From Alphaproteobacteria bacterium (GTDB taxonomy: Bacteria; Pseudomonadota; Alphaproteobacteria; Bin95), in contig CBDBGH010000003.1 in the NCBI GenBank assembly GCA_965205265.1, positions 2,464,001 to 2,528,000 on the forward strand: a stretch of 64,000 bases of DNA, written 5' to 3'. This document shows, piece by piece, positions 7,340 to 18,603 of this stretch. A program made the position numbers and the translations under genes. The notes under the pieces were generated by a model. It searched no databases. It was not told where the DNA came from and saw only the letters and a list, made by a program, of their open reading frames with translations. Position 1 is the first letter of the stretch; every line of letters starts with the position of its first letter.

Positions 7340-8618
7340 ATGCTGCAAAAAGGCGGAAGCAACTGGGTCGAGGGAGACCGCTTCTTCGACCGGGAGGTCG
7401 AGCTTGAGATCCTGACGGACCGCATGCGGGACGGAAATCACACCCTGGTGACCGCACAACGGCGCATGGGCAAGACGAGCCTCGTGCGGGAACTGCTGCG
7501 GCGCCTGGCGGAGGGCGGCGAATTCGAGACGGTCTTCGTCGATCTGGAAGCCGTCCTGGACCAGGCCGATACCATGGCCGAAATCACGGTTCGCGCCCGG
7601 CCTGTGAGCGGGGCATGGGGGCGGATCGAAGCCGGTTTCGTCAACATCCTGAAAGAAGTCGGCGGCCGAATCGAGGAACTGTCGGTCTCCGACCTGAAAG
7701 TGAAGCTGCGGGCCGGAATCGATGCCGGCAATTGGCCCCAGCGGGGCGATGCGGTCTTCGCCGCGCTCGCCGACAGCAACCGGCCGGTCGTGCTCGCCAT
7801 CGACGAACTGCCGATTCTCGTCAACCGCCTGCTCAAGGACGACAGCGGGCGAATCACGCCGGAAGGCAGGAAGGAAGCGGATGTGTTTCTGAGCTGGCTG
7901 CGCCGGAACGGGCAGGCCCATCGGGGACAGGTAACCATGATGCTGTCCGGCAGCGTCGGCCTTGAGCCGCTTCTCGAACAGGCTGGGCTGAGCGCCCACG
8001 CCAACATCTTCTCTGCCTACGACCATGAAGCCCTGGGATGAAGAGACCGCGGTATCGTGCCTGTCGGAGCTTGCCGGGAGCTACGAGGTCGGCCTGCCGC
8101 ACGGGATATGCCGGGACATGTGCCGGCGGCTCCGCTGCTGCATTCCCCACCATGTGCAGATGTATTTCGACAAGCTCCACGACCGTCTCAGGCACGCCGG
8201 TCGGCAGGCCGCAACGGAGGAGGATGCGGAAAGGGTCTATCTGCACGAGATGTTGAGCGTCCGGGGCCAGATGGACCTTCAACACTATGAAGACCGGTTG
8301 AGGACGATACTCGGAACGGCAGGCTATCCGGTCGCCATGGAGATACTGACCGCAACCGCTGTCGGCGGCCTTCTGGACGGCGATGCCGTTGGCCGTTACC
8401 GGGCGCATTTCGCGGCCGGGGCCGGGGATATCGAACCGGGCGGTCCGTCGGTCGGGGATGTGCTGCACGTCCTGCTCCATGACGGCTATCCGGAGCCGCA
8501 GGACGGCGGCTACCGGTTCAGGTCGGGTCTTCTCGAGGACTGGTGGCGGAACCGCTGGGGCGGAAGCTTCCGGCCCGTCATCGACGACGGGCGGCGGAGC
8601 GGGGGAGCGGGCCGATGA
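7340..8618 (+). pseudogene. P-loop ATPase (STAND-like, likely wHTH) split by a +1 frameshift near 8025
   Basis: FFDREVEL, Walker A AQRRMGKTS, Walker B VLAIDELP, LSGSVGL; deleting A8025 gives continuous YDLKPWDEE joining ORFs 7340-8041 and 8025-8618. Confidence 0.75.
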
Positions 8619-11600
8619 CCGCCAGGAAATACAATCCGGGGTTCCTGTCCGACGACGAACTCGTCGCGACCTTCTGCGTGCGGACCCGGGAATTCGCCTC
8701 GATCGTCGAAACGCTCGGGGAATGCGACGGAAACTCGAACACGCACCAGATCGTCATCGGGCCGCGCGGCAGCGGCAAGACGAGCCTGCTGTTGCGGGTC
8801 GCGGCCGAGATAGACCGGGATGCCGGGCTCGCCTCGCGCTTCTTCCCGGTGGTCTTCGCGGAGGAGAGCTACGAAGTCTCGACTGTCGGGGAGTTCTGGC
8901 TCGAATGCCTATCGCGTCTGGCCGACCGGGCGCCGCAGCGCGAAGACGGTCCCGATCTGCGGCGCAGTTTCGAGGAACTGCGGGCCGTCCGGGACGACCG
9001 GGCGCTCGGGGACCGTTGCCTCGGCGCCCTGCAGGACTTCGCAGACCGTGAAGGCAAGCGCCTGGTGCTGTTCGTCGAGAACCTGAACATGATGTTCCGG
9101 GACATGGCGGACAAAGATGCCGGATGGAAGCTGCGCCACACGCTCCAGACCGAGCCGCGGATTGTCCTGCTGGCGAGCGCAACCAGCCGGTTCGACGAGA
9201 TGGACAGCCCGGACAAGGCCTTCTACGACCTCTTCCGGGTGCTGTTCCTGCGTCCTCTGGATACCGGCGACTGCGCGACCCTCTGGCAGCAGGTCTCGGG
9301 CCAGAGCCGGGCGCCGCAGACAATCCAGGCGTTGCGGATTCTCACCGGCGGCAGCCCCCGGCTTCTGACCATCGTGGCCCGTTTCGGGGCGAAGCTCTCG
9401 TTCCGCGAACTGATGGCCGACCTCCTGAACCTCGTGGATGACCATACCGAGTATTTCAAGAGCCACCTCGATGCGCTTCCCGCCCAGGAACGCCGTGTCT
9501 ATCTGGCCCTCGCTGCGTTATGGAAACCTGCGACTGCTCGCGAAATCGCTGACCGGGCGCGACTCGACACCAGCAAATGCAGCGCGCAACTCGCGCGACT
9601 GATCGATCGCGGCGCAGTCGAGACAACGGGCGGCAGCCCGCGGCGCAAGTTCTATTACCTCGCCGAGCGGCTCTACAACATCTACTACCTGATGCGCCGC
9701 GCCCGGGGACCCGCACCCCTGATCGAAGCGCTGGTCCGCTTCATGGAGGGATACTACTCGGCGGATGAGTTGAAGGAGTTCGGGGCCCGGATTGCGAGGG
9801 AGGCGCTGGAAACCGACGGCAAGGACCTGCCGCATTACCGGACCGCATTCCAGCAACTGGTCCGACTCCCGTCCCTGTCAGCGTACCGCGACGAATTGTT
9901 GTCGCTGACGCCGGCTGCGTTTGGCTTCGGCGAAGAGGGAAGCGGTTATTCCGCCGCGGACGGGCGTCCGGTATCGGCAAGGGAGCTTTTCGAGAACGGC
10001 CATGCCCTGGCCGAGGGCGGACGACTAAAGGAAGCTGTTGCGGCGTGGAAAGACCTCGTCCGCCGTTTCGGGGAAAGCGAAGCGGTGGACGACCGCAATC
10101 GGGTCTCGCTGGCGCTCGTAAATATGGGGACGGCGCTCGGGCGCCTGAACCGTTTCGAAGAGGCCCTTGCGGCCTGGGACGATGTTGTGCGGCGCTTCGG
10201 GGGAAACCGGGAACCTGCAATTCCTAATGCTGTCGCCACGGCCCTGCTAAAAACAGCGTTCCTGCACACCGAGGAGAACCGCCCGCTGGAAGCGCTGGCC
10301 GCATGCGACGAAGTCCTGCTGCGCTTTCGGGAGACGCGGATCGAGTCGCTTCAAAGTCTGCTCGCGAATGCGCTGATCGGCAAGACTGTTGCGCTTATGG
10401 CGTTGAACCGGCCGAACGAGGCTTTGGCCGCCTGCGACGAACTTTTGGGGCGTTTCGGCGCAAGCGCAGCGCCCGAATTCCTCGGCAGCATCGCCGCGGC
10501 CATGGCCGGTAGAGGCTCCGCCCTTCTCGCCCTTGGCCGTCTCGACGCAGCCGCGGCTGCATGGAGCCGGGTGGCGGAGCACTTCGGAAGCAGCGAGATT
10601 CCGGAAGCCATCGACCATGTTGCCATGGCGCTCGGCAACAAGGCGTCCGCTCTTGCCGGGCTCGGTCGCCCTGAAGAAGCGCTCGCCATATGCGAAGAGG
10701 TCCTGCACCGCTATACGGATGACCGTCGGCCGACACGGCGGGAACCGACCGCCGCCGCCTTGCTCCACAAGGGCAACGCCCTCGGTCTGTTGGGCCGCCA
10801 AGAGGAAGCGCTCGCCGCATGGAGTGAGTGCGCACAGCGCTTCGGTTCCGAACCGAACGAGCAAGTGCCGGTGGCATTGGCGCTGATGAGCACGGGCATG
10901 ACGCTGCTTCAAACAGACCGACCGGAAGAAGCATTGCCTGTCTGGGGCGACATCGTCCAACGCTTCGGAACGAGCGATCAGCCCCAGATACGTGCGGTTA
11001 TCGTCAAAGCTTTCACTCAAATGGGCACCTTGCTGGAGCACTTGGCCCGGCATGAGGAGGCTCTCGCCGTTTGGGAGGATGCCGAGCAGCGCTACGGAAC
11101 CGGAGTAGAGCCGGAATTTCTGGAACTGGTTGCCGGCTCTCTAGTCAACAGGGGCGCCACCCTCATCGAACTGGGCCGACTGGAGGAGGCGCTGGCGGTA
11201 TTCGACCGGGCGGTGCACCAATTCGAAACGAGCGAAGCGCCGGAGATCGTTTATTCCGTTGCAGCCGCTCTGCACAACAAGGGTTCTGTGCTCAACATGC
11301 TGAACCGGGCGGAAGAGGCGGTTGCGGTCTGGAATGAATTGATAAGCCGGTATGGCAACAGCAACGAGCCTTCAATCCTCAAGCAAGTTGCGGGTGCGGT
11401 TGTCGGCAAAGGTGCCGCGCTAGCCGGCATGGGTCGAATGGAAGAAGCGCTTACGGCCTGCGACGAGGTTCTCCATCGCTTCGGAGCGGACGCCGGACCG
11501 ACATATATCGAGGAGATGTGGACGGCTCTTTCCAACAAGATTACCGTTCTCGCCTTCCTGAACCGTCCGGAGGAGGCGCTGGCAGTCTGCGAGGAAGGTG

Positions 11601-12217
11601 TCCGGCGCTTTGAGGCCGGCACCGACACCGCAGCAGCGAACGCAATCGCCGCTTGCTTCGCGAAGAAAGGCGACCTGCTTGCCCAATTGGACAGGACCGA
11701 TGAGGCGGTCGCGGCCTGGAAGGAGGCGGTGCGGCGCTTTGGGGCCAGCGACGCGCCGGCGCTGCGCCAAACCGCCGATACGGCCCTGATCGGACTCGCC
11801 GGGCATGAGTTGAAGCAGGGGAACGCCGGGGCGGCCGTGGAGGCCGCAGACCGGGTTCTGCAACATGAGAAAGGAACGCCGGACAGCCGGTGGCGCGCCC
11901 TCTTCGTCCGCGCCTTGGCCCATCTTAAGGAAGGAGACAGAGCCGCATGCGCCCTCGACATCGAGGCGGGACTGGAGGTCCTTCCCGGCCTCGACATTCT
12001 CCCGAAGGATGCCCTGGACGCCCTGTCGGACATCGCTCTGGTATTCGGCCTGGCCGAAACGGGCGATCTCATCCGCAAGTCGCCAGCCTCCGACCTGCTG
12101 CTTCCCCTGACAACGGCCTTTGAGTTGGAACTGGGCCTGGAGCCGCGCGTGGCGAAGGAAGTCGAGGAAGTTGCCGAAGACATCCGGCGGGATTTGCGGG
12201 AGCGGCAAGGAAATTGA
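8615..12217 (+). CDS. STAND-type NTPase with wHTH and a long TPR-like repeat array (~1200 aa)
   Basis: Walker A GPRGSGKT, atypical Walker B LFVENL, TGGSPRL, wHTH (AREIADRARL), then many ~44-aa EEALAxxDEVxxRFG...ALxNKG repeats; ATGA coupled to upstream ORF. Confidence 0.88.
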   Translation: MTARKYNPGFLSDDELVATFCVRTREFASIVETLGECDGNSNTHQIVIGPRGSGKTSLLLRVAAEIDRDAGLASRFFPVVFAEESYEVSTVGEFWLECLSRLADRAPQREDGPDLRRSFEELRAVRDDRALGDRCLGALQDFADREGKRLVLFVENLNMMFRDMADKDAGWKLRHTLQTEPRIVLLASATSRFDEMDSPDKAFYDLFRVLFLRPLDTGDCATLWQQVSGQSRAPQTIQALRILTGGSPRLLTIVARFGAKLSFRELMADLLNLVDDHTEYFKSHLDALPAQERRVYLALAALWKPATAREIADRARLDTSKCSAQLARLIDRGAVETTGGSPRRKFYYLAERLYNIYYLMRRARGPAPLIEALVRFMEGYYSADELKEFGARIAREALETDGKDLPHYRTAFQQLVRLPSLSAYRDELLSLTPAAFGFGEEGSGYSAADGRPVSARELFENGHALAEGGRLKEAVAAWKDLVRRFGESEAVDDRNRVSLALVNMGTALGRLNRFEEALAAWDDVVRRFGGNREPAIPNAVATALLKTAFLHTEENRPLEALAACDEVLLRFRETRIESLQSLLANALIGKTVALMALNRPNEALAACDELLGRFGASAAPEFLGSIAAAMAGRGSALLALGRLDAAAAAWSRVAEHFGSSEIPEAIDHVAMALGNKASALAGLGRPEEALAICEEVLHRYTDDRRPTRREPTAAALLHKGNALGLLGRQEEALAAWSECAQRFGSEPNEQVPVALALMSTGMTLLQTDRPEEALPVWGDIVQRFGTSDQPQIRAVIVKAFTQMGTLLEHLARHEEALAVWEDAEQRYGTGVEPEFLELVAGSLVNRGATLIELGRLEEALAVFDRAVHQFETSEAPEIVYSVAAALHNKGSVLNMLNRAEEAVAVWNELISRYGNSNEPSILKQVAGAVVGKGAALAGMGRMEEALTACDEVLHRFGADAGPTYIEEMWTALSNKITVLAFLNRPEEALAVCEEGVRRFEAGTDTAAANAIAACFAKKGDLLAQLDRTDEAVAAWKEAVRRFGASDAPALRQTADTALIGLAGHELKQGNAGAAVEAADRVLQHEKGTPDSRWRALFVRALAHLKEGDRAACALDIEAGLEVLPGLDILPKDALDALSDIALVFGLAETGDLIRKSPASDLLLPLTTAFELELGLEPRVAKEVEEVAEDIRRDLRERQGN

Positions 12218-12531: not shown

Positions 12532-13737
12532 ATGACGACACTCGCAGAGCCGCAGGCGGAAAACGCGGCGCACGACCCCTATAGGGCCCTGATGGAAATC
12601 ACCCGGCGGCCCGCCATCACCTTCACGCACGGGCGGGGCGGGCTGCTCTGGGACAGCGAGGGCAACCGCTATCTGGACTTCATCCAAGGCTGGGCGGTGA
12701 ACTGCCTCGGGCATAGCCCCCCGGCCGTCGCCCGCGCGCTGGCGGAGCAGTCGGCCCGGCTGCTCAACTGCAGCCCCGCCTATTACAGCGAGCCGATGAT
12801 GCGCTATGCGAATGCGCTGACGGCGGCGGCGGGCCTGGAGCGGGTCTTCTTCGCCAATAGCGGCGCGGAGGCGAATGAGGGCGCCATAAAGCTCGCGCGG
12901 AAATGGGGCGCGAAGCACCGCGGCGGCACCTATGAGATCGTCACCACCGTCGGCGGCTTCCACGGCCGGACGCTCGCCACCATGTCCGCATCGGGCAAGG
13001 CGGGCTGGGACGGGCTGTTCGAACCGAAGGTGGCCGGGTTCCCGAAAGTGCCGTTGAACGACCTGGCGGCCGTCGAGGCCGCGGTCGGGGACCGGACCGC
13101 CGCCGTCATGCTGGAGCCGATCCAGGGCGAGTCCGGCGTGTGGCCCGCGGATGACGGCTATCTGAGGTCCCTGCGCGCCCTGGCCGACCGGCGGGGCATC
13201 CTGCTGATCCTCGACGAGATCCAGACCGGCATGGGCCGGACCGGAAGCCTGTTCTGCTTCGAGCATGCCGGCGTCCGCCCGGACATCGTGACGCTCGGCA
13301 AGGGGATCGGGGCCGGAACTCCTCTCGCGGCGCTGCTCGCGCGCGAGGAAGTCTGCTGTTTCGAGCCGGGCGACCAGGGCGGCACCTATAACGGCAATGC
13401 GCTGATGGCCGCGGTCGGCCATGCGGTGCTCGAAGAGCTCACTGCGGACGGCTTCCTCGAGCGCGTCTGCGAGGCCGGGGCGGCGCTGCGGCGCGGCTTG
13501 GAGAGCCTCAGCGGGAAATACGGCCTCGGCGGCGTGCGCGGCAGGGGGCTGCTGCTTGCCCTCGACCTGACGCCGCGTTCCGACGGGTTCGCCCTCGTCG
13601 AGAAGGCGCTGGCGAAGGGACTGCTGCTCAACGCCCCCGCCCCCGACGCGCTCCGCTTCGTGCCGGCGCTCAACGTTACCGATGCGGAAATCGCCGAGAT
13701 GCTGGATGTGCTGGACGGCTTGCTGGAAGGCCGGTAG
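12532..13737 (+). CDS. argD: Acetylornithine aminotransferase (class III PLP)
   Basis: [61 protein letters not shown]. Confidence 0.9.
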
Positions 13738-13826
13738 CCGGCGGTGCGGCGGGTGCGGCGGCAGAGGCGGCAAGACAAACAGTTCGCTTATTCGCTTCAC
13801 CGCTGCGATTGCCTTTGCTAACCTAG

Positions 13827-14013
13827 ACTTCCTCTTAGCTGGGTGCTCTCGAATGACTCGACTTGAGGTCACTCTATGCCGGGTGTTTAGCCAGGCTGCA
13901 TGCAATTGCGCGAGTTTGGGCGCCGACTTGGCCGAGCCAAGGCGCACCCGGCTCCGCTCGGGCCCGCCTTGGCTCGGCCAAGTCGGCTTCGCTAGGTAAG
14001 AGGCAGAGGAAGT
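13827..14013 (+). ncRNA. Retron msr-msd non-coding RNA
   Basis: a1 ACTTCCTCTTA then G13838 (TTAG branch context); a2 TAAGAGG..AAGT at 13997-14013; perfect 23-bp msd stem 13922-13944 / 13965-13987; small msr hairpin 13854-13871; directly upstream of effector and RT. Confidence 0.85.
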
Positions 14014-14926
14014 GGACCATCCGCTTCTCAGCGCGGACCAAGCCGCGCTACGCCGGCGGTTGGTCCACTTCCTCAAAACTGCCCTTTCTGTCCAGCGCTC
14101 CAGCAATATCATATTTTTGTGTGGGGGCACCAACTCCAACGATTTGCGAATGACCTTTAAGGAGTACTGCCAAAACCATCTACAAGAATATCAAATTTTT
14201 CTGCCTGAGGCAGCTATGACGCCCCTCTTCTCTGACGACCTACAAGAACCTTTTGATCTCACAGATTTTGAGGTCCTTGTTGGCCGAATATCGCTAGCCA
14301 TCGTTCTCTTTCCTGAAGCCGCTGGCTCCTATGCTGAAACCGGTTATTTTTCTGCAATTCCAGCTCTCGCTCAAAAATGCATCCTTGTTTTGGATCGAAA
14401 ATACCAATCTGACGACAGCTTCTTGTCACTTGGCCCTGCAAAAAAAATCTCCGAACAGTCGATCTTTCATCCGAACATCACTCTCGATTACTGTCAACCA
14501 GACTTTGAAACAATAACCACCAGACTACGTTCTCGAAAACTTTCTAAGAAACGTAAATCTTTGCAAATTGACAAATTTTCTGATTTGTCCGAATACGAAA
14601 TCATTGTTGTGTTAGATATGATTGTAAGGCTTTGTAAAATTGCAACTCTATCAGATATAAATTACTTGCTAGCCGCGATTTTCAAAAATAGATTTTCACA
14701 ATCAAAAATTCAGAAACTTTTGTCGATTTTAGTTGGCTCAAATTATCTTCAAGAGATTGGTCCATATGGTCACTTTACCAGTGGTAACGACAAGCTATCT
14801 CTCGCGATTGTTCGGGAAGGTTTCAAAAATGACGAACAAGAATTGCGATTGTCATTAACAACAATTTGCCAAAAGGCAGAGCCGGATTTTGTGAATCTAA
14901 TTAGGGCACCGACCTATGTTGATTGA
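14012..14926 (+). CDS. Retron effector, nucleoside deoxyribosyltransferase-like (Ec73/St85 type) with probable C-terminal wHTH
   Basis: IIFLCGG, DLTDFE, IVLFPEAAGSYAETGYF, SFLSLGP; low GC; overlaps RT start. Confidence 0.85.
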   Translation: MDHPLLSADQAALRRRLVHFLKTALSVQRSSNIIFLCGGTNSNDLRMTFKEYCQNHLQEYQIFLPEAAMTPLFSDDLQEPFDLTDFEVLVGRISLAIVLFPEAAGSYAETGYFSAIPALAQKCILVLDRKYQSDDSFLSLGPAKKISEQSIFHPNITLDYCQPDFETITTRLRSRKLSKKRKSLQIDKFSDLSEYEIIVVLDMIVRLCKIATLSDINYLLAAIFKNRFSQSKIQKLLSILVGSNYLQEIGPYGHFTSGNDKLSLAIVREGFKNDEQELRLSLTTICQKAEPDFVNLIRAPTYVD

Positions 14927-15851
14927 AGATCTTCAAATTCAGTCAGGACTTTCACGCCAGCAATTACTCTATCTGTCCAACACGGCATCAAAGAGATATA
15001 AATCTTATACGATTCAGAAACGCAATGGAGGATCGCGAACGATTCACCATCCTAGTAGGACGCTAAAGGCAATTCAGCGATGGCTTAATTTGGTTCTAAT
15101 TTCTAACCTGCCAGTACATGATAGCGCAACTGCATACAGGAAAGGACAAAGCATTCGATCGAATGCCATGATGCATGCGAAAACACGGTTCACATTGCGA
15201 ATGGACTTCAGAGAATTTTTTCCATCCTTTTGCGTCCATCATGTCCGAGAATTTATCGAAAGGAAAGGATCGGAAATCGGTTGGGAATTAAGTGACGATG
15301 ATTTAGAATTTGTAGCGAAAATAAGTACCAGATTTGATTTTTTAACTATAGGAGCCCCATCATCACCGACCTTGACTAATGCGATGATGTATGGATTTGA
15401 TTATCGTGTGTCGGATTGGGCAGATGCAGAAGGATTGATTTATACTCGATACGCTGATGATCTGTTTATTTCGTCTCGAAGACCTAACAAATTAGCGGCA
15501 GCGCGGGATAGAATATTGGAAGAAAGTGCACAATTTAAATACGCAAAACTAATCATAAATGACAAGAAAACAGCATACTTGTCGCGGCGATATCGACGAA
15601 CAATTACTGGCTTGGTTGTAACACCGGGGGAGCGAGTATCCATTGGACGGGGACGTAAGCGCGAAATAAAAAGTATGGTTCACAGGTTTATGGCAGGGTC
15701 GATGACAATCGGAGAAATAGACAAGTTGCGCGGACTAGTCGGGTATTCTAAGGGAGTGGAACCAAGCTTTTATGATTCTGTTTGTGTCAAGTATGGGAAA
15801 TCGGTGTTAGAGAAGGTGCTCAAGGGAGATTTGGAGGCGAAGCGCGTTTAG
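14916..15851 (+). CDS. Retron reverse transcriptase
   Basis: NAMMH (retron NAxxH), MDFREFFPS, GAPSSPTLTN, YTRYADDL, ITGLVV (VTG-like); 311 aa with no maturase domain. Confidence 0.93.
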   Translation: MLIEDLQIQSGLSRQQLLYLSNTASKRYKSYTIQKRNGGSRTIHHPSRTLKAIQRWLNLVLISNLPVHDSATAYRKGQSIRSNAMMHAKTRFTLRMDFREFFPSFCVHHVREFIERKGSEIGWELSDDDLEFVAKISTRFDFLTIGAPSSPTLTNAMMYGFDYRVSDWADAEGLIYTRYADDLFISSRRPNKLAAARDRILEESAQFKYAKLIINDKKTAYLSRRYRRTITGLVVTPGERVSIGRGRKREIKSMVHRFMAGSMTIGEIDKLRGLVGYSKGVEPSFYDSVCVKYGKSVLEKVLKGDLEAKRV

Positions 15852-15884
15852 CAGAGAAAACGAAAGACAAGCTCACTTTCGAGA

Positions 15885-16098
15885 ATGCGGCGGTCTGCTC
15901 AGGACCGGCATGGCCGCCGACATCGTGGTGTTCGACGAGGCGGCGGTGAAGCCCTGCCTGCCGACGGTGGAACACGACCTGCCCGGCGGCGAGCACCGGC
16001 TGGTGCAGAAGGCCGAGGGCATCGACGCCACCATCGTCAACGGCGAGAGCACCGGTGCCGTTCCGGGCGGAGTCATAAGGGGCCCGCTCGCGGCTTAG
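15885..16098 (+). pseudogene. C-terminal remnant of an N-acyl-D-amino-acid deacylase/amidohydrolase
   Basis: GMAADIVVFD...DLPGGEHRLVQKAEGIDATIVNG...PGGVIRG; 5' part absent, GC content jumps at the retron boundary. Confidence 0.65.
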
Positions 16099-16130
16099 CG
16101 GCGTCCCCTCCTCCGGCCTGTCCGAGCGGA

Positions 16131-16358
16131 CTAACCGTCCCCCTCCGCGATATCCGTCTTCAGCGCCCGTTTCACGCCCTCGCTGCGGCTGTGGATCGGG
16201 GCGAACTGGCCGTTCAGGCGGAGGAACTGGTTCAGTTGGTTGCCGAAACCGAGCGCGCCGTGCAGCGCCATGTCCTCCGCCAGCCGGCAGGTGGTCCTGG
16301 TGCGCCGGACGGCCTAGGGCACGCGGCCGGTCAGCGTGCCGAAGAACACCGCCATCGC
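16131..16358 (-). pseudogene. Degenerate copy of the 3' end of the enoyl-CoA hydratase at 17133-17948
   Basis: 16144-16358 aligns colinearly with 17158-17372 (offset 1014 nt); Trp codon TGG changed to TAG. Confidence 0.85.
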
Positions 16359-16395: not shown

Positions 16396-16448
16396 GTAAT
16401 GGCGGTTATCTGCGGGCGGACACGGACATGCGGACAGGAACAGGGTCC

Positions 16449-16682
16449 ATGCCTCCCACCTTCAATATCGGCGATGCCAAGACGCGGTTGTCGCATCTGA
16501 TCGCCCAGGCCGAGGAAGGCCGGGATGTCGTCATCGCGCGCAACGGCGTGCCGGCAGCCCGCATTGTGCCGATACGGGAACCGGTCGCCCGCACCGTCGA
16601 ACTGTTGAGGCAGGAACGGAAGGAGCGCCCCGCCGTCTCCGCCGAGGAGATTCGCGCCGCCAGGGACGAGGGCCGCGCCTGA
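16449..16682 (+). CDS. Phd/YefM-family antitoxin
   Basis: FNIGDAKTRLSHLIAQAEEGRDVVIARNGVPAARIVP; ends EEIRAARDEGR. Confidence 0.88.
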   Translation: MPPTFNIGDAKTRLSHLIAQAEEGRDVVIARNGVPAARIVPIREPVARTVELLRQERKERPAVSAEEIRAARDEGRA

Positions 16683-17083
16683 TGGCTGTCGTTATCGACG
16701 CCTCCATCGCGGCGGCATGGTGCTTCCCCGACGAGCGGGCGCAGGCGGCCGAGCAAGTTCTGGATATGCTGCCGCAAACCGGAGGCGTCGTTCCCGGACT
16801 CTTCCGGCATGAAATCCGCAATATACTGATCGTGAACGAACGCCGCGGCCGTATCGACCGCACCCAAAGCCTGCGGTTCCTGACACGTTTGCGGAGCCTG
16901 CAACTGGTGCAGGACGATTCTCATGACGAAGACACGGTCCTCGCGCTCGCCCGCAATCGCCGCCTGTCCGCCTACGACGCTTCCTATCTGGAGACCGCGT
17001 TGCGCCGGGGCGACAGCCTTGCGACGCTCGATCGCGCCCTTGCCCGCGCGGCCTCCGCCGAAGGTGTAACCGTCATCGCCTGA
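16682..17083 (+). CDS. vapC: VapC PIN-domain toxin
   Basis: VVIDASIAAAW..DE, EIRN, LSAYDASYLE, LATLDRAL; TGATG coupling. Confidence 0.9.
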   Translation: MAVVIDASIAAAWCFPDERAQAAEQVLDMLPQTGGVVPGLFRHEIRNILIVNERRGRIDRTQSLRFLTRLRSLQLVQDDSHDEDTVLALARNRRLSAYDASYLETALRRGDSLATLDRALARAASAEGVTVIA

Positions 17084-17132: not shown

Positions 17133-17948
17133 TTACCCGCCTTCCACCGCCTCCTCATCCGCAATATCCGTCTTGAGGGCCTGTTTCACGCCCTCGCTGC
17201 GGCTGTGGATCGGCGCGATCTGGCCGTTCAGGCGGAGGAGCTGGTTCAGCTGGTTGCCGAAATTGAGCGCGCCGTGCAGCGCCATGTCCTCGGCGAGGCG
17301 GTAGGTCGTCTTGGTGCGCCGGACCGCCCAGGGCGCGCGGTCCGCGAGCGTGCCGACGAAGGCGGCCACCGCCCCGGCCAGCCCGCCCGGCTCCGCCAGC
17401 CGGTTCACCAGGCCGAACTCGCGATACTGCTCGGCGGTGTAGAGGTCGCCGGTCATGGCGATCTCCAGCCCCCGGCGCCGCCCGATCTGGCGCGTGAGCA
17501 GCGCGATGTTCATGGCGGCCGGGAAGCCGTAGGCCATCTCCACATTGCCGAACCGCGCGCCGCGCTCGGCCACGACGAAATCGCAGGCGAGCGACATGGC
17601 CTGCCCGCCGCCGAGCGCCATGCCGTGCACAGCCGCAATCGTCGGCTTCGGCGATTCGATCAGCAGCGAGAGCGCCTCCAGGAAGATGTCCACCGCCGCG
17701 TCCACGGACATGTCCTGGAGAATGGCGGCCTCCTCGAATTCGGAGGCGTCGCGACCGGAGGTGAAGCAGTCGCCCGCGCCCCGGACGACGATGGCGCGCA
17801 CCTCGTCATCCGCAATGGCGCTGCGCACGGCCGCTGCGAACGCTGCCAGCAGCGCGTCGTTCATCGCGTTCTTCTTCTCCGGGCGGTTGAGCGTCAGCAC
17901 GGCGGCGCGGCCCTCTTGCGAGACGAGCACGAGCGGTCGGTCCGGCAT
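17133..17948 (-). CDS. Enoyl-CoA hydratase/isomerase family protein
   Basis: LTLNRPEKKNAM, FTSGRD, KPTIAAVHGMALGGG, ACDF. Confidence 0.9.
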   Translation of the reverse strand: MPDRPLVLVSQEGRAAVLTLNRPEKKNAMNDALLAAFAAAVRSAIADDEVRAIVVRGAGDCFTSGRDASEFEEAAILQDMSVDAAVDIFLEALSLLIESPKPTIAAVHGMALGGGQAMSLACDFVVAERGARFGNVEMAYGFPAAMNIALLTRQIGRRRGLEIAMTGDLYTAEQYREFGLVNRLAEPGGLAGAVAAFVGTLADRAPWAVRRTKTTYRLAEDMALHGALNFGNQLNQLLRLNGQIAPIHSRSEGVKQALKTDIADEEAVEGG

Positions 17949-17998: not shown

Positions 17999-18304
17999 TT
18001 AACCCGACGCGCGCAGCCGGTCATCGGTATCGAGCGTAGGCAGGCGGGCAATCTCCACTCCGCTCTTTCGCTCCGCCAGCCGCAATTCGTAGAGCTTTTG
18101 AAGGTTCAGCCAGAACTCGCCGGACGTCCCAAAGAAACGGCCCAGGCGCAGCGCCGTGTCCCCGGTGACGGCGCGGCGCCCGTTCAGGATTTCGGTAATC
18201 CGGTTTACCGGAACCTCAATCCGCCGGGCCAGTTCGGCCGCGCTCATGCCCAGCGCATCGAGGTCCTCCCTCAGGGTCTCGCCCGGATGGATGGGGTCAC
18301 GCAT
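17999..18304 (-). CDS. higA: HigA antitoxin (XRE HTH)
   Basis: PIHPGETLRE, NRITEILNGRRAVTGDTALRLGRFFGTSGEFWLNLQ. Confidence 0.92.
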   Translation of the reverse strand: MRDPIHPGETLREDLDALGMSAAELARRIEVPVNRITEILNGRRAVTGDTALRLGRFFGTSGEFWLNLQKLYELRLAERKSGVEIARLPTLDTDDRLRASG

Positions 18305-18321
18305 CGCGATGAGCCTCCTCG

Positions 18322-18603
18322 TCAGTGGTAATCGACAATTTCCACGTCTGTCGGGCCGGAGCTTCCATCCGGCCACCTAAAGCAAATCCGCCACTGGTCA
18401 TTGATCCGTATACTCCATTGCCCCCGTCGCCGGCCTCTCAGGGCTTCGAGTCGATTGCCCGGCCGCGCCAGGTCGCGCAGACCGGTCGCTGCATCGAGTT
18501 GGTCCAGCTTGCGCGAGGCGGTGCGCGCAAAGCCGGAAAAGGCCGGAACCCTGCGGCCCCGGTAGAACGCTTCCGTCCTCTTGTCCCCGAAGCCAACGAT
18601 CAA
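18322..18603 (-). CDS. higB: HigB toxin (RelE/ParE family)
   Basis: PGNRLEALRG, QWSIRINDQWRICF, ends VEIVDYH; toxin precedes antitoxin. Confidence 0.92.
   Translation of the reverse strand: MIVGFGDKRTEAFYRGRRVPAFSGFARTASRKLDQLDAATGLRDLARPGNRLEALRGRRRGQWSIRINDQWRICFRWPDGSSGPTDVEIVDYH

Follow-up and report, generated by a model that had tools for sequence, protein, structure and literature searches.

What occupies the 2.1 kb of low guanine–cytosine (GC) DNA that interrupts a GC-rich alphaproteobacterial chromosome, and how might the effector encoded there be held in check? The window analysed here is a 64,000-nucleotide stretch of an Alphaproteobacteria bacterium genome (assembly GCA_965205265.1, contig CBDBGH010000003.1, positions 2,464,001–2,528,000 of the forward strand), and coordinates below count from its first nucleotide. 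An original prediction, made from the letters alone, read positions 13827–15851 as a complete retron composed of a non-coding RNA (ncRNA), an effector gene and a reverse transcriptase (RT) gene. The present analysis leads to much the same answer. The cassette is very probably an intact type II-A1 retron that was acquired by horizontal transfer and would work by the mechanism of its family; in the subgroup to which it belongs, effector translation may be subject to a further control. For the specialist it is an ordinary find, one more example of a retron kind that is common and already well known. Type II is the most abundant retron family according to a preprint (bioRxiv 10.64898/2026.10.13.758329), and the window adds one more uncharacterised member of it from a high-GC host.

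Effector, reverse transcriptase and retron family

The effector and RT genes are the only genes within the cassette. The effector gene (14012–14926, forward strand) starts with GTG and encodes 304 amino acids; the RT gene (14916–15851, forward strand) starts with ATG, 11 nt of overlap joining it to the end of the effector gene, and encodes 311 amino acids. Both open reading frames (ORFs) are exactly those listed in the original prediction, and their translations contain all the protein motifs mentioned there. NAxxH, YADD and VTG-like motifs mark retron RTs, and the window's RT carries NAMMH at residues 83–87 (N83–H87), YADD at residues 179–182 and ITG at residues 230–232. Run against PADLOC, the proteins gave RT_II-A (339.4 bits) and NDT_II-A (163.6 bits, effector residues 23–281) as their best-scoring models. 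They also pass both curated NCBIfam models for the St85 family: the RT scores 320.6 bits with retron_St85_RT (NF038233; cut-off 235), and the effector 163.2 bits with 'retron St85 family effector protein' (NF038232; cut-off 100). A local copy of Pfam reported only RVT_1 in the RT and gave no match for the effector; PF28093 is listed as a precomputed domain for effector homologues in the protein database.

The effector, RcaT or 'retron St85 family effector', combines an NDT-like N-terminal domain with a C-terminal helical/winged-helix part. Its motifs are IFLCGG at residues 34–39 and E102-x-x-G105-S106-x-x-E109. Residue Glu109 is invariant among 32 homologues and aligns with the glutamate that is replaced by alanine in a chain of structure 8qbl, whose entry title describes an inactive effector, E106A. 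In Sen2, the mutation E107Q abolishes toxicity, as reported in the preprint (bioRxiv 10.64898/2026.10.13.758329). A sequence comparison pairs the effector with that of Ec86 (7v9x_C) at E = 1.8e-11. An AlphaFold model built with the 32 homologues has a predicted local distance difference test (pLDDT) score of 88.9 and a predicted template modelling (pTM) score of 0.87, and its only matches in the PDB below E = 0.001 are three Ec86/Eco1 effector chains (E = 2e-11 to 2e-9). In structural alignment these chains cover the full length of the effector, with TM-scores of 0.52–0.58 and 17–19% identity. The start codon is secure because the N-terminus is conserved: MDHPL opens most of the 32 aligned proteins, and M1, H3, P4 and L5 are each shared by 90% of them or more.

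Among the closest relatives, RTs are 85–88% identical to that of the window, effectors fall in the same 90% cluster and the lengths of both proteins are unchanged. Relatives of the RT and the effector that carry names are alphaproteobacterial. In a class-wide sample the effector turned up in 2 of 400 other genomes, and phage and plasmid collections yielded only distant enterobacterial St85-type matches at about 29% identity.

These profile and sequence comparisons support assignment to type II-A1 (the St85/Sen2/Ec73 family), with ncRNA, effector and RT in that order on one strand. Ec73 itself is arranged ncRNA–effector–RT. That the window holds an Ec73-like type II-A retron, as first proposed, agrees with the PADLOC and NCBIfam models and with the classification of Mestre et al. 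2020, whose Table 1 lists Retron-Sen2 (St85), Vc81 and Eco3 (Ec73) under type II-A1 (PMC7736814). The same paper gives the type II-A1 effector an NDT and a DNA-binding domain. In that classification Retron-Eco3, like Sen2, has an RT of clade 1 and the ncRNA type common to I-A and II-A1. Retron-Sen2 of Salmonella Typhimurium has the gene order msr-msd/rcaT/RT, identical to that of the window, and resembles it further in the St85-family models that the window's proteins pass and in an NDT-like domain with a catalytic glutamate; the two would be expected to share a logic in which RT–msDNA (multicopy single-stranded DNA) acts as antitoxin to RcaT. They differ in that the window's retron lies in a high-GC host and has alphaproteobacterial relatives. 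Retron-Eco1 (Ec86; structures 7v9x, 7xjg, 8qbk and 8qbl) is related to the window through the sequence and fold of its effector, but it is a type II-A3 retron with an RT of clade 9, according to the classification in PMC7736814, and the two effectors share only the low identity given above.

The ncRNA and its predicted msDNA

Immediately 5′ of the effector ORF lies a highly structured region of 190 nt. The fold of positions 13815–14080 has a free energy of −152 kcal/mol (z = −9.5), which none of 200 dinucleotide shuffles equalled. In both the minimum free energy fold and the consensus fold, the a1 arm (CCTCTTA, 13831–13837) pairs with the a2 arm (TAAGAGG, 13997–14003), which ends 8 nt before the GTG at 14012. 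Priming of msDNA synthesis at a branching guanosine is general retron biology, and the predicted 2′-OH primer here is G13838, which stands unpaired between helices in a TTAG context. The sequence CTCTTAG that contains it is invariant in all eight loci of the window-subgroup alignment, and the inverted repeats and TTAG named in the original prediction are borne out. The msr part (13841–13896) contributes two hairpins to the consensus structure, 13841–13845/13870–13874 and 13878–13884/13890–13896.

The predicted msd template spans 13905–13996. Its start is set by a2, since reverse transcription presumably begins at the position immediately 5′ of a2, as is the rule for retrons, here 13996; its far end, near 13905–13912, is a guess placed by analogy with Ec86. 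Within the template, a stem-loop at 13918–13992 contains the perfect 23-bp stem noted at the outset, whose arms are now placed at 13922–13944 and 13965–13987. Beyond a 2-nt mismatch it continues for four more pairs, giving 29-nt arms that are 93% complementary. If the 3′ end lies near 13905–13912, the msDNA would plausibly be 85–92 nt long, with 72–74% GC, and it is predicted to fold at about −43 kcal/mol with DNA parameters. The very GC-rich product of 70–90 nt first envisaged is therefore plausible, although its 3′ end is not one that sequence can fix. This unusually high GC content, together with a lack of the GATC site used by Sen2, makes the predicted msDNA of some use for further work.

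Conservation of these elements extends well beyond the window. Of the 65 pairs in the consensus fold of the eight-locus alignment, 21 show compensatory changes. Most of these fall in the msd stem, where many pairs in columns 130–147/176–193 are changed on both sides in relatives. The a1/a2 helix, 7 bp in the window, measures 6–11 bp in 33 of 34 distinct family loci, the exception having four contiguous pairs, and across these 34 loci positions outside its CTTA/TAAG core covary. An msd hairpin is likewise found in 33 of 34 distinct family loci; those that have lost it are identical to one another and form one small group. In metagenomes, a degenerate msr motif of 22 letters matched 61 loci. Relatives of the effector and/or the RT are encoded downstream of 37 of them, at an unchanged offset; msr hairpin 2, with its GUGUUUAG-type loop, is kept in these 37 and is also seen in the St85-type retron of a Klebsiella phage. 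Among the other metagenome loci, 4 are incomplete and carry the CTCTTAG motif, and 20 are unrelated; in viral contigs the same motif had no match. The order ncRNA–effector–RT recurs in family loci L001, L002 and L005 and in the metagenome loci. In a Brevundimonas metagenome-assembled genome and in Paracoccus spongiarum, whose RTs are 48–50% identical to that of the window, the gene order is shared and the upstream regions align with the window's. The collected metagenome loci define the ncRNA family well, which adds to the usefulness of the locus.

Two groups of loci depart from the common arrangement. The identical or near-identical loci L010, L016, L036 and L047 keep a1, the msr hairpin, effector and RT, the msd hairpin is absent, and TAAGGG follows only 44 nt past the msr motif; the msDNA template could have been lost, or the arrangement could be a different one. 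Metagenome loci L062 and L026 have the msr part followed by unrelated sequence, with no effector or RT found downstream, and are probably truncated retrons.

Family membership suggests how the retron would operate. The a1/a2 duplex would set the 2′-OH of G13838 beside template base 13996, and the RT would copy the msd into a GC-rich hairpin msDNA of about 85–92 nt, still joined to the msr RNA. The RT–msDNA complex would bind the effector and hold it inactive. Phage activity that alters the msDNA, whether by modification, degradation or binding, would release the effector, whose NDT-like or NAD-directed activity, exerted through catalytic Glu109, would halt the infected cell. We infer msDNA synthesis, effector toxicity and phage defence from this family membership. 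According to the preprint, RT–msDNA restrains RcaT until the msDNA is disturbed by a phage activity, the trigger of Sen2 is methylation of a single GATC in its msd by phage Dam, and toxic RcaTs are tetramers whereas the non-toxic RcaTs of Eco1 and Eco3 stay dimeric (bioRxiv 10.64898/2026.10.13.758329).

The trigger is where the window differs from Sen2. No GATC occurs between 13838 and 14003 and no GANTC in the window's msd; the Dam/GATC trigger, which acts at a single site in Sen2, thus cannot apply as such, and the trigger must differ. GATC is scarce in the family as well, being present in the msd region of only 2 of 32 loci and missing from 29 of the 31 other family loci. GANTC, the CcrM-type motif, occurs in the msd regions of 15 of 32 family loci, with up to four copies per msd (L001, L005, L019, L041, L061 and L013 are among them).

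The effector start and a possible double use of a2

A second hairpin (14006–14074, forward strand), overlooked in the original prediction, covers the GTG start and codons 1–21 of the effector gene. Its 19-nt arms are 95% complementary (z = −7.1), and a homologous start hairpin is present in all eight subgroup loci, with z between −2.6 and −7.1. The 10-pair core, 14016–14025 with 14055–14064, is 96.3% paired across the eight loci, and in three of its pairs both partners have changed. In 500 shuffles neither the pairing nor the covariation score was ever reached, and pairing falls to 27–56% in slid registers. Codon usage in the arms is skewed in the direction of pairing. The arginine codon opposite Pro4 is CGG in 8/8 loci, compared with 12 of 105 arginine codons elsewhere in the same effector genes, and Pro4 is CCG in 8/8, compared with 30 of 86 elsewhere. 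The wobble base of the histidine codon (CAT/CAC) tracks ATG/GTG on the opposite arm, giving three CG pairs, three UA pairs, one UG pair and one mismatch. This synonymous codon choice suggests selection for pairing in the hairpin.

The surroundings of the start codon are equally uniform. All eight subgroup loci use GTG or TTG as the effector start, in all eight a2 ends 5–10 nt upstream of it, and by eye a2 is the sole Shine–Dalgarno-like sequence before the effector. These sequence features suggest a low level of effector translation, in competition with the pairing of a1 and a2 on a single transcript, and the start hairpin may restrain it further. In the subgroup, translation of the effector would then be limited by a2 acting as Shine–Dalgarno sequence, by the GTG or TTG start and by the hairpin at 14006–14074. 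Ribosome loading and RT priming would compete on the one transcript, and toxin output would remain low relative to msDNA. A stricter version, in which the effector is translated only from transcripts whose a1/a2 helix has been opened or removed, for example by reverse transcription and digestion of the template by RNase H, would make toxin synthesis conditional on earlier msDNA synthesis, and we regard it as rather unlikely.

Several observations tell against translational control by the hairpin. Among other family loci, 15 of 24 are no more structured than expected over the 100 nt that begin at a2, and no excess is seen at the effector start of the St85-type retron in Klebsiella phage 4LV2017, the only enterobacterial St85-type locus that was folded. 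The comparison rests on just eight loci that are related to one another and are not independent. The 11-nt overlap between effector stop and RT start means that the RT may depend on effector translation, which is awkward for a model that restrains the effector alone. The two arms also encode conserved peptides that are antisense to each other, DHPL and K/R-R-M/V-V, and protein constraint therefore accounts for part of their complementarity.

Taken to its end, this last point would make the hairpin at 14006–14074 a by-product of DHPL and KRMV-like motifs that happen to have reverse-complement codons, with no role for the RNA. Residues L13 and R14 are as widely kept among the 32 effector homologues as M1, H3, P4 and L5 (each in at least 90%), and the hairpin is missing from much of the wider family even though HP...R-V-like motifs remain there, both as such an origin would lead one to expect. 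It does not explain the synonymous bias towards CGG and CCG, the histidine wobble base that changes jointly with ATG/GTG on the other arm, or the poor pairing of slid registers. There is a real though minor chance that the by-product account is correct. Translational control by the a2 overlap and the start hairpin, if functional, would be a new layer in the balance between toxin and antitoxin in retrons. It would also matter for expression vectors, since an ncRNA cut at a2 strips the effector of its native translation signals. A literature search whose coverage left out subscription journals and supplements yielded, among the papers listed, none that treats a2 as the effector's Shine–Dalgarno sequence or describes a start hairpin, and none of those listed mentions both RcaT and Shine–Dalgarno; on retron msr start-codon hairpins and translation it returned only a study of Eco11, in two versions, a retron of a different type.

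An alternative pairing of ACTTCCTCT (13827–13835) with 14005–14013 was considered as a switch and set aside, as this register is not conserved in the relatives compared. In Klebsiella phage 4LV2017 (L084, 1367–2419), the annotated coding sequence of the St85 effector begins inside the apparent msr–msd region, with CCTTAG at about 1344–1349 and an msd hairpin at about 1420–1475. Judged by eye, translation probably begins instead at an ATG near 1504.

Insertion site, alternative readings and neighbourhood

The cassette as a whole, with ncRNA, effector and RT, spans 13773–15889 on the forward strand, as bounded by breaks in homology to same-genus genomes and by GC contrast. Over these 2.1 kb its GC content is 44.3%, compared with 69.5% and 68.5% in the 2-kb flanks, much as the original prediction had it; the ncRNA, at 63.6%, lies above the cassette mean. 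In comparisons with several same-genus genomes, homology ends at 13770–13772, having extended through the class-III aminotransferase gene upstream, and restarts at 15890–15892. The corresponding interval in one of them, G412, is 2.2 kb of 68% GC with a gene for a 572-residue Amidohydro_3 protein. In the window, a remnant of that gene, its last ~68 codons (15892–16098, forward strand), is cut off at the right edge of the cassette and is 84% identical to G412 residues 498–572 (of 572). Because the resident gene is full length in G412 and a remnant here, the site must have given up about 2 kb of its resident DNA when the retron arrived.

The comparison bears out the inserted cassette first proposed and supports a reading from sequence in which it replaced most of the resident amidohydrolase gene and was acquired horizontally. 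Its insertion into the chromosome is a recent event. In another same-genus genome, G405, the site measures 143 bp and lacks a retron; apparently the interior of that amidohydrolase gene has been deleted there. The clean bounds of the 2.1-kb cassette, together with this near-empty comparison site in a relative, make the locus a convenient one. Both junctions are covered without differences in assembled contigs from three runs, each from a different study and one possibly the source sample: in X1 and in X3 one contig reaches across both, whereas in X5 separate pieces do so. A 7-nt repeat, AAGACAA, was noted by eye near the cassette ends (13772–13778 and 15865–15871) and rejected as a target-site duplication, being misplaced at the right junction.

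Some results weigh against a retron that works in this host as its family would predict. A promoter scan found no sigma-70-like promoter upstream of a1, and the four promoter-like sites that it reported, compared with 2.7 expected, are all intragenic; a terminator scan found no terminator-like site 3′ of the RT. An Rfam scan of 13500–16200 at E up to 10 returned only chance miRNA-type hairpins and no retron msr family. Finally, with no GATC in its msd, the retron has no access to the trigger that has been studied best in its closest characterised relative. A weak TTCACC-17-TAACCT at 13796–13824, picked out by eye as a promoter, is backed by no tool.

The lack of a promoter-like site before a1 and of a terminator past the RT, along with the strongly foreign composition of the cassette and a conceivable silencing of low-GC foreign DNA, would suit a silent or decaying passenger whose genes look intact but which makes no msDNA and provides no defence in this host. 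The sequencing runs listed for this DNA include no RNA run, which speaks neither for nor against silence. Such a passenger is quite improbable, given that neither ORF is truncated, that every catalytic motif is in place, that the closest relatives keep the same lengths at 85–88% RT identity and that ncRNA pairs are maintained by compensatory changes. Transcription could also reach the cassette by read-through from the same-strand aminotransferase gene that ends at 13737. A different doubt concerns the RT, which might belong to another RT-based system (type I-A, defence-associated RT (DRT) or Abi), the hairpins upstream being unrelated to it. The second-best PADLOC model is indeed RT_I-A, at 267.7 bits, and among the nearest solved RTs, all of them retron RTs, those that the PDB names by system are Ec83 and Ec78 of type I-A, followed by Ec86 (E about 6e-42). 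PMC7736814 places types I-A and II-A1 in one RT clade (clade 1) with one ncRNA type, and with a shared clade RT_I-A would be expected to come second. Yet RT_II-A leads by about 70 bits and the St85 RT cut-off is passed, whereas Drt2 and Drt3a reach only 33 and 24 bits (cut-offs 390 and 200), and the DRT and group II intron models generally stay far under their cut-offs. In type I-A retrons such as Ec78 and Ec83 the effectors are an ATPase and an HNH nuclease; the adjoining effector here is NDT-like, no ATPase/HNH pair is present and the cassette has no further gene. An origin of the RT in another system is scarcely credible, and an intact type II-A1 retron remains the preferred reading.

Elsewhere in this genome, the other RVT_1 genes are multicopy and identical, and the window's is the single retron RT. 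Seven of them (L085–L091) lie on contig 3 outside the window, in two sets of identical score with frames of 442 aa and of 506 and 420 aa, and are probably multi-copy group II introns.

The neighbours of the retron include a large AAA_16/TPR protein, a Phd/PIN pair and a HigB/HTH pair. The first, two genes upstream (8543–12217), is 1224 aa long and has an N-terminal AAA_16/STAND-like NTPase, a winged helix of TrmB type and long arrays of TPR repeats; it may be a further NTPase with a role in defence or signalling. The Phd/PIN toxin–antitoxin pair (16428–17083) is flanked by a direct repeat of 221 nt with 86% identity (16138–16358 and 17152–17372), the second copy of which overlaps an ORF at 17133–17948. 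Judged from that overlap, each copy resembles the 3′ terminus of an enoyl-CoA hydratase gene, so the Phd/PIN pair may also be an insertion, one that duplicated its target. Further on, at 17999–18603 on the reverse strand, a HigB-like toxin gene (18322–18603) overlaps an HTH_3 antitoxin-like gene (17999–18376), making this a third small toxin–antitoxin-type module within 5 kb of the retron.

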